This document shows positions 20,942 through 25,486 of a stretch of 29,253 bases of DNA, one piece after another (position 1 is the first letter of the stretch; every line of letters begins with the position of its first letter). The notes beneath the pieces are model-generated. The model was not told the origin of the DNA. It saw nothing but the letters and a program-made list of their open reading frames with translations, and ran no database searches. The DNA lies in the IMG/VR virus record IMGVR_UViG_3300020043_001244, positions 1 through 29,253 of that record. One strand, written 5' to 3'. This DNA comes from a virus. Its lineage: Duplodnaviria; Caudoviricetes. The position numbers and the translations under genes were made by a program.

Positions 20942-22152
20942 TAGGCGAATTTATCCCGAAGAATTGGAAGCCAATACTTAGTCCAAACCTTTTCTACGTC
21001 GAACTCAGAAGCAAAGTCGATAGCTACCTGCGAACGGCCTTTGCCTAGCTTGTAAGCCTCTTCTAGAGCGGCAACGATTGAAGGCACGTTAGGGATTTGC
21101 CACCAAGCGTCCTGCCCTGAATCCCAAGAAGGCTGCCCGGATACTAGCCAACCGTCTTCGGCAACTAGGTCGGGAGTTGCTGCCCAATCAGAACCGACAA
21201 CGCGTGTACCTGCTGCCTGCGCTTCAATAGTTGGAACCCCGAATCCTTCTCCATAAGAAGTAGCAAGAAGAACGTCCATTCCCGTATAGTAAGCCGCCAA
21301 ATGTTCCTGCGGGATTCCATACTTGTAGCTGACCGGGTTTGGAAAGGCTACGTCGTCTTTCTCGATTCCCAACGACTGAAGAAGGCTAAGAAGATTCCAG
21401 CCAACGCCTTTAGAAAGCGGGTCGGTGTGAAGATACAACATAGCGTCCGGGTGCTTCTTCTGAAAAATAGAGAAGGCTAATAAATTTTCTGAGAAACTTT
21501 TTCTGTGAACTAGGCCCGAAGATTTGTTTGCGGCCACCATTCCAACAACGTATCTGTCCTTAGTTCCCATATGTTCTTCGACTGTCTGACCGTCGATTTC
21601 AAAGGTAGGTTTTATCTTCTTCGTGTCGATTCCGTGTGGAGCATAAACGCAGTCGATTCCCTTGTTATTCATTTGTCTAACTCCGTGCGGAGCCATAGCA
21701 ACGGGTGTAACGTTTTCTTTTCTTAGAAAGGTTTCTACTCTAGGCGGAAGAGTTAGGTGGTCGAGCGGTGTCCAAGAAAGAATAGGAAAGTCGTTGAATG
21801 CCGGGTTAGTAAGAACCCAAACGTCATAAAGGGTAATCATAGCGTTAGGTTGGTTTGGCTTTAGAGATGAAAAGTTTTTGTGGTCTACGGGCGCGGTGTC
21901 ATTGGAATACATATCCATTCCGCGGGCGAAGTGTGGAATCTTTCCATAAGGCGTATCTAGTTCGCGCTTGATTCCTTCGAGTCCGTAATTTGAAAGAGCT
22001 GCGACGTCGAAGCCGTGACGCTTTAGGCGGTCTACTAAGTAGCGGGCTTGCTGTCCATAACCCGTTGGCTGGTCGGGTGAATTGGAATAAAGGGAAACTG
22101 TCCCCTTGAACTGTTCTTTGTTAGCAGGGTTTTTAGATTTGGTAGGAGTCAT
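20941..22152 (-). CDS. glycosyltransferase family 4-like (GT-B)
   Basis: PTGYG, PHGID, RK, SYGEGFGVPTIEAQAAG (EX7E). Confidence 0.9.
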   Translation of the reverse strand: MTPTKSKNPANKEQFKGTVSLYSNSPDQPTGYGQQARYLVDRLKRHGFDVAALSNYGLEGIKRELDTPYGKIPHFARGMDMYSNDTAPVDHKNFSSLKPNQPNAMITLYDVWVLTNPAFNDFPILSWTPLDHLTLPPRVETFLRKENVTPVAMAPHGVRQMNNKGIDCVYAPHGIDTKKIKPTFEIDGQTVEEHMGTKDRYVVGMVAANKSSGLVHRKSFSENLLAFSIFQKKHPDAMLYLHTDPLSKGVGWNLLSLLQSLGIEKDDVAFPNPVSYKYGIPQEHLAAYYTGMDVLLATSYGEGFGVPTIEAQAAGTRVVGSDWAATPDLVAEDGWLVSGQPSWDSGQDAWWQIPNVPSIVAALEEAYKLGKGRSQVAIDFASEFDVEKVWTKYWLPILRDKFA

Positions 22153-22170: not shown

Positions 22171-22218
22171 AAAAAAGACAAAAGGAAAGGCCGCCGAAAC
22201 CCTACCGTCCGGCGACCT
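22171..22218 (-). terminator. intrinsic terminator after the major capsid gene
   Basis: aggtcgccgg...tcggcggcct stem followed by ttccttttgtctttttt. Confidence 0.8.
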
Positions 22219-22246
22219 CTCCAGTCTGTTAGCTAATGCTTGTGGC

Positions 22247-23422
22247 TTAGCTTGCGCCTCCGCGGAACTTCACGAAGTGGCTTGCGTGTGTTAGGTTTCC
22301 GTCCACCCGTGCGGTAACACGGAAGGTTGTTACGTCCTCGTTGAAGGCGTAATCTGCGGACTGAGCAACCTGAATACCGCCGGCAACACGTGCCTTATAT
22401 GACGGAAGGTGTCCAACACCGATTGAGAAGGCGTTTGCTGCTACTGACAATGCGGCCGGGTTCTCGAAGACCGGATAACCCAAGAGCTGGTCTGGCTGAC
22501 CCTGTGCGATATTTCCGGCTGACCAGATAAACGCTCCAGAACCGTCCTTGATTTTGCGAACTGCCGCAAGACCAGTCTTGTTCATTAGCCAACCAACACC
22601 CGGAAGCAAGCGAGCCTGTCCGTCCAAAGTGTAAAGAAGGTCGACTAGGTTTTCGTAGGTCGGTGCGCCTGATACGCCAGTTCCACCAGTAACCGCAGAA
22701 GCTCCGGTTGTGAAGATACCTGTTGGCTCTACGGTTCCAGTTCCGGTGGTTAGTCCGGTGTTGATTGCGAAACCAATGGCATTTCCGGCCTGCTCTGCGA
22801 TTAGTGCGCTGATATCAAAACCTGCGTCTGTCAATAGCTCATTAGCTACTGGGACTAGGAATGAATACTTGTATGCGCCCAAGGTCAAAGAGCTGAATGT
22901 TGGTTCGCTGTCTGCGATTGCTGAACCAGCAACCTTGATAGTCGCAGTTGAACGCGCTGTCAAAGTCGGAATGGTTAGGTTCTCACCAGAAGCGGTGTTG
23001 ATTACCTGCGCAACGTTAAGCATTGGGCCGGCAAGTCTGGCGATAGAGAACACTTCGTCGAAGAAAGATTTCGGCACGGTGTTGTCGGAAGGAACTAGAG
23101 TTCTTTTCTCTGTTCCGAATGTGTGTGAACGTACTTCACCGTTAGCGATTGCGCGAAGAATGTCTGCGTCGCCACGAACCTCTGAAGAAGGAACGAAAGA
23201 GTTGCGAGCTGCGTCGATTGCGCGGGCTTCACGCTCTTCCATTTTCTTAGCGGTGTCGATAGCTGCGTCACGCTGGCTAATTTCGGTTTCGATACGTTCG
23301 ATTGTCTGCTGGTCATCTACGGTTAGTCCGCGCTTGTCCGCTTCGGCTGACTCGATTACTGTTCGGGCCTGCTCGATTAGGTTGTTGCGGGCTTCAACCT
23401 GTGACTTTAGAAAGTCGCTCAT
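22247..23422 (-). CDS. HK97-fold major capsid protein with N-terminal delta (scaffold) domain
   Basis: Coiled-coil N-terminus, VPVANELLTDA, GTGTVEPTGI, LLGYPVFEN, RVDG. Start trimmed to ATG 23422 (AAGGAG RBS). Confidence 0.95.
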   Translation of the reverse strand: MSDFLKSQVEARNNLIEQARTVIESAEADKRGLTVDDQQTIERIETEISQRDAAIDTAKKMEEREARAIDAARNSFVPSSEVRGDADILRAIANGEVRSHTFGTEKRTLVPSDNTVPKSFFDEVFSIARLAGPMLNVAQVINTASGENLTIPTLTARSTATIKVAGSAIADSEPTFSSLTLGAYKYSFLVPVANELLTDAGFDISALIAEQAGNAIGFAINTGLTTGTGTVEPTGIFTTGASAVTGGTGVSGAPTYENLVDLLYTLDGQARLLPGVGWLMNKTGLAAVRKIKDGSGAFIWSAGNIAQGQPDQLLGYPVFENPAALSVAANAFSIGVGHLPSYKARVAGGIQVAQSADYAFNEDVTTFRVTARVDGNLTHASHFVKFRGGAS

Positions 23423-23458
23423 TGTTGAATCTCCTTGTTTGATTTTTTTATTTGGATT

Positions 23459-23507
23459 CCGCCGAGCTAACTCAAGCGGTAGCAATAGGGAGCTGACTCA
23501 ACCCATT
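23459..23507 (-). promoter_or_regulatory. tandem hairpin motif in the capsid 5' leader
   Basis: Two copies of TT-GAG-TYAG-CTC, each closed by a different basal stem; -10 TAGAAT at 23514-23519. Confidence 0.6.
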
Positions 23508-23530
23508 AGTTCTATTCTAATCACCCGGGT

Positions 23531-23598
23531 AAAGAGCAACGCCCGCCGGAAAGGAATACGGCGAGCGTTGCGGTCGGGAGAAAGGGGATAACCCCGAC
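23531..23598 (-). terminator. double hairpin/terminator with CCUUUC loops
   Basis: gtcggg/cccgac (23573-23598) and gcaacgctcgccg/cggcgggcgttgc (23535-23571), followed by tcttt. Confidence 0.65.
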
Positions 23599-23605
23599 GT
23601 GACCC

Positions 23606-23773
23606 TTAGCGGGTTTCTTTAGCTTCTATGACGCGAACTTCTTTGGCTTGAACTTCATTATCAAGTTCCCAAATTGCCTGCGCCCAAGTGTCTACGTTAT
23701 CACGGACGATACCCGTATCTGGACGGCCTGAAGCCTTTAGAATTGCGTCTTTGATTTGTTCTTTAGTAGCCAT
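23606..23773 (-). CDS. small head-module protein, 55 aa
   Basis: Manual translation gives MATKEQIKDAILKASGRPDTGIVRDNVDTWAQAIWELDNEVQAKEVRVIEAKETR*. It has a GAGG RBS and abuts the protease stop. Confidence 0.75.
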   Translation of the reverse strand: MATKEQIKDAILKASGRPDTGIVRDNVDTWAQAIWELDNEVQAKEVRVIEAKETR

Positions 23774-25486
23774 TTATAGCCTCTTCATTAGTAGTTCGAG
23801 CTTCATCTTCTTCAACTCTAGTGCGGTTAGCTCTTCTAAGTTGTCTTCTTCTACGGCTTCTTCTTGTGGAGTTAGTCGCTGGATTACTTTAGTTAGAAGT
23901 TCGGACTGCTCTAGAGATAGGTCTTTACCGTCTTCGATAGCCAACATAGCGTCCGCTAACTGGTCTGCGTCTACTTCTGCGCGCTTTGCTACTCCGTCGA
24001 ATGAACGAACGGCTGCTGTTCCTGCGGTCTGCTGATATGCCGGGAATGCCACTATTGAAACTTCGTGAATTCTTACGGAGCGGAGAGTTCTTTCGGTTCC
24101 CTCGGTGTTCCAAGAATCACCGTTAGCTGGAACTGAGAATCCAAACGACATAGCTGATACGTCGCCACGTTGTACCAAAGTGCGAACGTCTTTTCCTAAA
24201 GTGGTTTCTGGTAGGACGGCAGTAACCCGAAGACCGTAGTTGTCTTCTTCAAGCTTTAGGGTTCCGGCCCGGGTAGAGCCTAGAACGCTTCCGGTGTCGT
24301 GGTTCCATAGAAGCTTGATATCGTTGCGTGCCTTTAGGGAACGCTTGAATGCTCCGGGCGCGATTCTTTCAATAAATGGAAGTGGTTCGCTTGGGCTGTT
24401 GAAGACTGCGGCGTATCCGGTGAACGTCATTCCGTCGCCACCTTCGACCGCTCTTAGCTCAAACTTTACTTCGTTAGTTCGCTTTTCAATCTTTGCCATT
24501 CGTTCGCTTTCCTGACTTATGCTTGCGCGATTTTCTTCCTCTAGTCTAGCAACGACGCCGTCCGCATAGTTCATAGCTCTACGCGCTGACGCTTTGCTCG
24601 GGCCACTTCCCCAAAGAAGGTGCGCGACAACTCCCGCGCTTGGATAATTTTCTGAAGACGGATTTGCGTCCGGAGAATCTAGGTCGCCTAAGTGTCTAGC
24701 AATCCAAGCGGCAATTCTTACCCACTTGTCCGCCGTGACGTTTCCTTCTGCCATAGCTCGGGCTTCTCTTACGGTTCTATCTACTAGGCCGTCACCTGCT
24801 AATCCTTCGGCGTAGTATTCAAGTCCACGGCGGGCTGCTGCTCGCATATAAGCGGGCGGCGTTAGGTTTACGTCCCGGGCTTCGGTTTCCTGCTCCGCTG
24901 GTTCCCAAGCATTACAGTAATTTCCGCCGTCTACGAATGCGTCCCACTTTTCGCACCAAGCTTTATCGCCGTCTTCGTTTAGTCGCTCTTCGTTGAAGAA
25001 GAAACAATTTCCACAAGCGCGACCTTCTGGAACATCTGGAGCAAGTGCCGGGCGATAGTTCTCCGGAAGATTTTGCTCTCCTTCGTCTTCTTCATCTTTA
25101 GCTTCTTCAACTTCTGCGGAGATTCTTTCCGGCATTTGAATTCTTGTTAGCTTGAAGACGTTCATAATCATTAGGCGATTAGTTGAATGGTAGGTTTCGT
25201 CTTCTAATTCGTAGACTTCTAGCCCTGCTAGTTCGCCTTCTATCATTACGACCTGCGCTAAAACATTCGGGTTTCTTTCGTTCCAGCTAACCCAGTCCCC
25301 GACTTGTAGCTGTCCAACGGCGGCGCGCTCTCCTACGAACTCGGTATCCTCGGCTAATGAAATTGCGATAGCTTGGTCGATAGCTGATTCTTTAGTGTCG
25401 TGGCAAGCAATTAGTTCGCCGTCTTCTTTAACAACGGCCCAAGCTGAAGGGCAGTCTGCGGATTGGTCGGTTATGTAATACGGCAC
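23774..25486 (-). CDS. multidomain HK97-type prohead protease (C-terminal S78-like domain with ~330-aa N-terminal extension)
   Basis: FTGYAAVFNS, ERIAPGAF, LLWNHD, MSFGF, EVSIVAFPAY. Confidence 0.92.
   Translation of the reverse strand: MPYYITDQSADCPSAWAVVKEDGELIACHDTKESAIDQAIAISLAEDTEFVGERAAVGQLQVGDWVSWNERNPNVLAQVVMIEGELAGLEVYELEDETYHSTNRLMIMNVFKLTRIQMPERISAEVEEAKDEEDEGEQNLPENYRPALAPDVPEGRACGNCFFFNEERLNEDGDKAWCEKWDAFVDGGNYCNAWEPAEQETEARDVNLTPPAYMRAAARRGLEYYAEGLAGDGLVDRTVREARAMAEGNVTADKWVRIAAWIARHLGDLDSPDANPSSENYPSAGVVAHLLWGSGPSKASARRAMNYADGVVARLEEENRASISQESERMAKIEKRTNEVKFELRAVEGGDGMTFTGYAAVFNSPSEPLPFIERIAPGAFKRSLKARNDIKLLWNHDTGSVLGSTRAGTLKLEEDNYGLRVTAVLPETTLGKDVRTLVQRGDVSAMSFGFSVPANGDSWNTEGTERTLRSVRIHEVSIVAFPAYQQTAGTAAVRSFDGVAKRAEVDADQLADAMLAIEDGKDLSLEQSELLTKVIQRLTPQEEAVEEDNLEELTALELKKMKLELLMKRL

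Follow-up and report, generated by a model that had tools for sequence, protein, structure and literature searches.

Twin bulged hairpins in the capsid leaders of an aquatic phage family as a candidate autogenous operator

The coat-protein operators of the RNA phages MS2/R17, Qbeta and PP7 consist of a small hairpin with a 5' bulge, a short upper stem and a small loop, and the ANTAR dual-hairpin RNAs of actinobacteria are tandem short leader hairpins, which are read by a dimer and carry six-base loops with A1 and G4. The scaffolding protein of phage P22 is said to regulate its own synthesis, as reportedly described by Wyckoff and Casjens in 1985. In HK97-type capsids the scaffold is the delta domain (PMC3185693). 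The operators of T4 gp32 and gp43 lie 67 and ~40 nt upstream (PMC3014915).

The window, i.e., the whole stretch of DNA that was analysed, is a record of 29,253 bases with an estimated completeness of 93%. It encodes on its minus strand a terminase, a portal, a prohead protease, a 55-aa protein and an HK97-type capsid protein. The features of the capsid region are as follows:

23606..23773, minus strand: 55-aa gene upstream of the capsid gene, no assigned function (from context; family near the capsid gene in 35/35 clusters)
23530..23571, minus strand: intrinsic-terminator-like hairpin after the 55-aa gene, with a pyrimidine-rich loop complementary to Shine-Dalgarno sequences (fold z -5.31)
23514..23519, minus strand: predicted -10 box TAGAAT (TAnnnT) of the capsid promoter (from conservation; predicted transcript start ~23507)
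23484..23507, minus strand: hairpin 1, with a basal helix, a 2-nt 5' bulge, GAG/CUC and a UCAG loop (from sequence and covariation)
23459..23479, minus strand: hairpin 2, with a basal helix ending in U-G, a 1-nt 5' bulge, GAG/CUC and a UUAG loop (from sequence and covariation)
23437..23458, minus strand: A-rich, G-poor spacer from hairpin 2 to the Shine-Dalgarno sequence (SD; from composition over relatives' leaders)
23431..23436, minus strand: SD AAGGAG (from sequence; ATG at 23422)
22247..23422, minus strand: HK97-type major capsid gene, 391 aa (phrog_10, PF05065, AlphaFold2 model)
22184..22222, minus strand: intrinsic-terminator-like hairpin after the capsid gene (in 45/45 representatives), its loop complementary to the opening codons of the gene that follows

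The original prediction saw two copies of a bulged hairpin in this leader. The window contains exactly two copies of the 12-nt apical pattern, where 0.01 would be expected, and 0 of 100 shuffles reach that number; both hairpins are also conserved and covary in relatives, so that they can be taken as real. When 2 mismatches were allowed, the number of matches in the window was 7 against 4.8 expected, indicating no additional real copies. Folding energy was not exceptional (z: region -1.45, hairpin 1 -0.71, hairpin 2 -2.37); thus, the reality of the element in the window rests on comparative evidence. Hairpin 2, the middle pair of which has a probability of 0.91 in the window, is present as predicted, although a U-G pair and a one-base bulge describe it better than its earlier form.

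Capsid-first scans together with one motif-first scan yielded 345 capsid loci and, after the exclusion of shorter or N-containing leaders, 207 distinct leaders of at least 120 bases. In these 207 leaders, twin bulged hairpins have a TAnnnT box on their upstream side and an A-rich spacer on the side of the HK97-type capsid gene, even though the pairwise identity of the capsids is as low as 38%, and the element is thereby conserved across relatives. The repeated unit consists of a basal helix, an optional bulged base (mostly U), one pair, a 1-2-base bulge, G-N-G, a 3-5-base loop and C-N'-C. As the unit parser always yields the best pair of units, threshold detectors were added. The first of them found at least two units in 121/146 leaders against 14/2920 shuffles, and the missed leaders had, upon inspection, basal-stem mismatches. 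A stricter detector (0.3% in shuffles) found at least two units in 129 of the 207 leaders, one in 76 and none in 2. The core-to-core spacing was 22-29 nt in 200/207 leaders. A covariance model built from 51 leaders, R1, gave 74 matches in 80 further loci, a few of which are near training members; there was one match apiece, at the capsid leader. The bulge that adjoins the core was A in 175, U in 114, C in 31 and two bases in 91 of the 414 units, and the loops of 3-5 nt were mostly UYAN, with pentaloop variants. In L366-L371, the linker is longer (core spacing 35-37 nt) and the second hairpin is extended, and in some of them the loop types differ between the copies. Judged from these comparisons, the tandem RNA element is real and under selection in a large family of aquatic phages.

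The middle pair of the core was Watson-Crick in 406 of the 414 units (C-G in 178, A-U in 144 and U-A in 84; A-A in 8). On a tree of 185 capsids, in 46 clusters at 80%, its two sides changed on the same branch 19 and 20 times in the respective hairpins, against 2.5 and 3.0 expected by parsimony with a branch-length-weighted null; the covariation suspected within the one genome is thus borne out by phylogenetically independent changes. An earlier set of 126, in which basal registers were selected to maximise pairing, gave 11 + 11 same-branch changes for the middle pair, and 3/4 basal pairs per hairpin were also significant. In a structure-blind MAFFT alignment of 51 leaders, 88.7% of 807 cells could pair, as compared with 68% in shuffled and 29-60% in slid alignments. 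The view that the apical 12 nt are conserved while the stems vary held in part: basal-stem changes are compensatory, but the middle pair is A-U, C-G or U-A and the loops depend on the lineage. There were 83 G-U cells and 10 A-C cells on the transcribed strand, which favours RNA over a DNA palindrome. The hairpins themselves are weak (median middle-pair probability of 0.2 for hairpin 1 and 0.5 for hairpin 2 over 47 leaders), as would be expected of a fold stabilised by a ligand; the neighbouring terminators are very stable. The minimum-energy fold in the window pairs the 5' arm of hairpin 1 with the SD-AUG spacer; as a conserved switch it was rejected, such 7-bp pairing being found in 4/207 leaders.

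Two sister clades with ~45% capsid identity to the window (P0125 and P0129) have a like unit with other loops, and the loop type (YYC, GAGC or UKUAU) is matched in both copies. In the P0125 clade, which was assigned by the unit detector and inspection by eye, the loops are YYC triloops, or GAGC in a subgroup, and two units were found in 32/37 leaders; R1 misses this clade (best E of 0.36, with 74 loci of the P0125 and P0137 clades searched). The P0129 clade has UKUAU pentaloops and a usually mismatched middle pair in hairpin 1, and the strict detector found one unit in 47/53 and two in 3/53 of its leaders. The P0137 clade (41% capsid identity) carries a different, folded-looking leader, with two units in 0/44. 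Capsid leaders thus appear to be structured throughout this part of the tree, in clade-specific forms. The more distant HK97 capsid genes of L597-L668 (P0137 clade) and L745-L747 also have other conserved, folded-looking leaders, which are candidates for further RNA families. In the P0129 clade (L676-L750), the last 25 nt before the capsid ATG contain an additional small hairpin over the SD; as judged by eye, L687, L688, L695 and L732 appear to show compensatory changes in it.

The element was found only before capsid genes. Motif-first scans, which were run without protein information, placed a related capsid gene immediately downstream in 88/119 loci in the first scan and in 105/120 in the second, where 4 more were cut-off leaders of the same kind; most other matches lacked basal stems or lay inside reading frames. 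R1 matched once in the window genome and gave one strong match in phage phiPsal1, and 6/6 matches in three metagenome bins lay before capsid genes. In the 151 genomes of the bin G001 family (39 candidates scored per genome), the strong matches were four phage capsid leaders only; five weak chromosomal matches (E 0.003-0.007) lay inside or opposite reading frames and were chance-like. A scan with a single unit gave 3 matches in the window (shuffled mean 1.25) and 4 in phiPsal1 (shuffled mean 1.45), 2 of them in the leader in each case. A weak recurrent match ~805 nt upstream was rejected as an extra copy due to its position within the protease coding region. Motif-like matches distant from capsid genes were seen in L159 (1493-1537, minus strand), L115 and L197; that of L159 has an R1 E of 0.0007 but lies opposite a reading frame, and L197 contains two perfect palindromes.

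The hairpins had been proposed to lie downstream of a promoter, and a conserved -10-like box is indeed found upstream of them: TAnnnT ends 13-17 nt before the hairpin-1 core in 201/207 leaders, as compared with 7-22 in six control windows. The box is present also where no terminator precedes. As a sigma-70 scan gave no minus-strand promoter at the capsid leader, the promoter call rests on this conservation, and the start remains a predicted one. The first paired base is 7-9 nt past the box in 32/43 representatives, so that hairpin 1 would start at the predicted +1 to +3. RNA runs contributed assembled contigs of relatives only (shares <0.1), and one contig of run X4 extends beyond the predicted start to about the -10 box by a hand count, which DNA carry-over or read-through would give as well. 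The hairpins lie 24-40 nt upstream of the AUG and include neither it nor the SD; hairpin 2 ends 12-27 nt before the SD in 46 representatives, and the spacer is 48% A and 5% G (146 leaders). A terminator follows the capsid gene in 45/45 representatives, and in 15/15 of each sister clade, and another one precedes the capsid promoter in 37/47 cluster representatives but is absent in the P0125 clade. The position of the box, the downstream terminator and the distance between hairpin 2 and the SD make it likely that the element forms the 5' end of an mRNA for the capsid alone, in which the ribosome-binding site (RBS) is left uncovered.

In the terminator that precedes the capsid promoter, the loop (window 23549-23562, minus strand) is, here and in many relatives, often a pyrimidine run complementary to SD sequences. 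Its pairing with the capsid SD was rejected (own -4.7 vs. cross-lineage -4.8 kcal/mol, p 0.65, 37 representatives), in a comparison that has little power as the SDs are alike. In L270, L355 and L379, insertions between the 55-aa gene and the promoter contain, as judged by eye, GGTTCGA(C/T)TCC-like words of tRNA/tmRNA T-arms. The post-capsid terminator (22184-22222) has a loop that is complementary to the opening codons (22141-22152, minus strand) of the following gene, which encodes a glycosyltransferase and is usually leaderless. This pairing is stronger within than between lineages (own -9.3 vs. cross-lineage -7.8 kcal/mol, 43 representatives, permutation p 0.0002), and several lineages use different complementary words (e.g., L046, L048, L056, L057, L078, L104, L252 and L393). 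In L075, an insertion separates the loop from its pairing partner, which is 222 nt further along, and about one third of the representatives are without a good partner. That this loop and the beginning of the following gene covary suggests control by antisense pairing or by a pseudoknot.

Among the known systems, the element would act most like the T4 gp32 and gp43 operators, and by its logic like the autoregulation of P22 scaffold. As in the T4 operators, a structured element tens of bases before the AUG is followed by an open A/U-rich stretch up to the RBS, there is one target gene, here the capsid gene to which the element is confined, and the loop bases differ between related phages (PMC3014915). 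The T4 operators differ, in the same source, in being a single hairpin or a pseudoknot in place of two like hairpins, and here the target is the capsid and the reader is predicted. A pseudoknot like that of T4 gene 32 was not found: complements of the loops in the linker, the spacer and the first 30 coding bases were not commoner than permuted pairs in 46 representatives. With P22 the locus shares a head-assembly gene and free scaffold as the proposed sensor, the HK97 delta domain being a fused scaffold; it differs in that the scaffold is part of the capsid protein and in its tandem bulged hairpins, and it is predicted from sequence. The RNA-phage operators resemble it in hairpin shape and in having the capsid protein as the proposed reader. 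They differ in that here the hairpins exclude the SD and the start codon, hairpin 2 ending 12-27 nt before the SD, are tandem, have a variable bulge base (A in 175/414 units) in place of an invariant bulged A, and lie before the capsid gene itself in a dsDNA phage. The ANTAR RNAs are alike in their two tandem leader hairpins and their occurrence in actinobacteria, but the loops here are of 3-5 nt, mostly UYAN, without the six-base A1/G4 arrangement, and the lower stems are bulged.

The host of the window phage is likely actinobacterial, as indicated by a WhiB gene in its genome, by its kinship with Pontimonas phage phiPsal1, and by relatives in two bins, one of Actinomycetota and one of uncultured Microbacteriaceae (others are in three bins of other phyla, possibly mis-binned). 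phiPsal1 is the sole close named phage among 449 matching records (capsid identity 48%); its gene order is as in the window, and both hairpins are present. It is known as a sequence only, the phage itself having been lost (PMC6106888), and does not provide a laboratory system. The 55-aa protein had no match in Pfam or PHROG, and its atlas matches were all <0.9 and without names. The C-terminus of its family carries repeated E-x-R motifs, and two capsid residues where the delta domain is predicted to end, E105 and R107, are likewise invariant; the motifs and these residues may be prohead-protease sites. In the prohead protease itself (23774-25486, minus strand, 570 aa), ~330 residues precede the S78 domain and include a cysteine-rich stretch, which we take to resemble iron-sulfur HiPIP proteins, with no Pfam match there.

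The strongest indication of how the hairpins are read comes from their loops. The last loop base is a purine in both hairpins or a pyrimidine in both in 45/46 clusters, and a switch between the two affected both hairpins on one and the same branch in 10 instances, as compared with 0.93 expected. No such concordance between hairpins was observed for the middle pair (4 vs. 3.1 expected), the sub-bulge pair (5 vs. 6.5), loop base 2 (6 vs. 6.6) or a basal pair (5 vs. 5.5). Duplication or conversion of units does not explain the joint switching, as whole units would homogenise and the stems do not; nor does loop-loop or pseudoknot pairing, for which there was no excess of complements. Joint switching of loops over independent stems points to one lineage-specific reader, and we infer a single dimeric or oligomeric one, the preference of which drifts by lineage. 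This supports the original prediction of a tandem protein-binding element in so far as a shared reader is concerned.

The likeliest reader is the unassembled capsid protein, with the twin hairpins as a putative autogenous translational operator that would be recognised through the delta (scaffold) domain, a reading that we hold to be tentative and somewhat short of probable. In this model, the promoter would start a capsid-only transcript at hairpin 1, and the terminator would end it. Two subunits of an oligomeric reader would take one hairpin each, contacting the loop end as well as the two G-C pairs that the bulge opens. Whenever capsid subunits are made faster than proheads assemble, the oligomer on the leader would keep ribosomes from loading on the A-rich spacer, 12-27 nt ahead of the SD, from an upstream structure, as with T4 gp32 and gp43; when assembly consumes the free capsid protein, the block would be lifted. 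The sign of control is taken as repression in this model, and activation or stabilisation would also be compatible with the results.

The capsid N-terminus is predicted by AlphaFold2 to be a delta domain with a helical hairpin (residues 3-28 and 35-73; pLDDT 82-90 across residues 1-60, 58.7 for the whole model). The mature capsid body was rejected as the reader of loop type, as bodies that are 97-99% identical carry different loops. Two cases of apparent recombination show the leader going with the delta domain and not with the body: the same leader and a 95% identical delta domain occur with a 68% identical body, and 97-99% identical bodies occur with different loops. L330, L333, L583, L225 and L247 appear to be recombinants in which the crossover lies close to the boundary between delta domain and body. 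As the leader adjoins the delta coding region, such co-inheritance is expected from linkage alone. Delta residue 50 was R/K in 38/38 pyrimidine-loop and 42/102 purine-loop sequences, but it is the post hoc best of 391 columns and is not diagnostic. Capsid residues 1-75 are net acidic (-4 to -8), which counts against an RNA-reading delta domain. Moreover, the distinct delta types of L225, L247 and L407 retain UYAG-type loops, and similar short loops occur with differing delta types, so there is no simple lock and key. That the delta domain, beyond its role as a disposable scaffold, is a sequence-reading RNA-binding module, by which capsomers bind the hairpins of their own mRNA while loop type and delta surface co-evolve as a lineage code in hundreds of aquatic phages, is a doubtful, if possible, extension of the operator model.

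The joint switching of loops requires merely a lineage-specific reader, and a like tandem docking site could be bound by a host protein (e.g., a ribosomal or RNA-binding protein with a preference varying by host genus) or by another phage protein (e.g., the long N-terminal part of the prohead protease), so as to enhance or time capsid translation. Such a reader would fit the uncovered RBS and the fact that the bulge and the invariant G-C pairs are retained where the delta domains differ greatly, and the protease parts are at most 81-89% identical across loop types. However, there was no convincing chromosomal copy in the 151 genomes of the bin G001 family and no further copy ahead of other late genes, as would tend to be the case with a general regulator, and closely related phages differ in loop type through repeated switches. 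For the 55-aa protein, a role as reader is unlikely: a search of 159 loci from the P0125 and P0137 clades, flanks of 1.5 kb included, gave no match, and in the P0125 clade, where the gene is absent near the element, the hairpins are present. On balance, we regard a host or other phage reader as rather unlikely.

Less probable still is a ligand-free function, for which the leader of T7 gene 10 is the model: the stems would shield the mRNA from 5'-end-dependent decay, and the A-rich spacer would aid ribosome loading. The start of hairpin 1 at the predicted +1 to +3, the A-rich spacer and the 3' terminator in 45/45 representatives would suit a 5' stabiliser and translational enhancer of this kind. 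Yet a shield needs neither a pair of hairpins at a fixed spacing, nor invariant bulged G-C pairs, nor matching loops, and these hairpins are weak (see above; z of -0.71 for hairpin 1 of the window).

The twin stems immediately past the predicted promoter, including their pentaloop variants, also recall HK022 put and lambda nut, antitermination signals of comparable type, which could modify RNA polymerase for read-through of the post-capsid terminator. This is very improbable, as the next gene often has, by eye, a TAnnnT box of its own and a leaderless start, the rapid change of loop type is not what would be expected where a conserved host enzyme binds, and there is one copy per genome in the window and in phiPsal1. 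Two DNA operator palindromes bound by a transcription factor downstream of the promoter, as the short inverted repeats of the cores and the presence of WhiB in the genome might suggest, are hardly credible in view of the excess of G-U over A-C on the transcribed strand (83 vs. 10), the one-sided bulges and the compensatory changes in the basal stems.

The original prediction had also called the motif possibly uncatalogued. Rfam 15 had no match in the window at the gathering score, GP20-a (RF02991) and GP20-b (RF03003) included, and at E up to 10 only DUF3800-IX matched, on the upstream terminator (E 5.6). GP20-a/b and, in Fremin 2023, DNAVirus_933 and DNAVirus_1143 are predicted cis-acting RNAs before phage head genes (PMC10690425). 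DNAVirus_933 is given there as 104 nt long, with 109 sequences, 105 from freshwater and 100 before major_cap_HK97 (PMC10690425). Compared by description only, its habitat, length and downstream gene are compatible with the twin-hairpin family, which, or a sister clade of which, may quite possibly have been listed already, without analysis, in that catalogue; the claim of novelty holds for Rfam and is tempered by DNAVirus_933. No description of this twin-hairpin capsid leader was found in the literature searched, which was mainly open-access.

Little is known of how tailed phages match capsid synthesis to head assembly beyond the P22 scaffold. The RNA of the family described here is small and well supported, and its natural loop variants and recombinants make it possible to ask whether an HK97-type capsid protein reads its own mRNA. 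If the operator model is true, coat-protein operator control would extend to tailed dsDNA phages, possibly together with a further level of control, at which the loop of each terminator would cover the beginning of the following gene; if the delta domain does the reading, it would have an RNA-binding role and might provide orthogonal protein-RNA pairs. Even with a host reader, the twin hairpins would represent an RNA family absent from Rfam in abundant aquatic phages.
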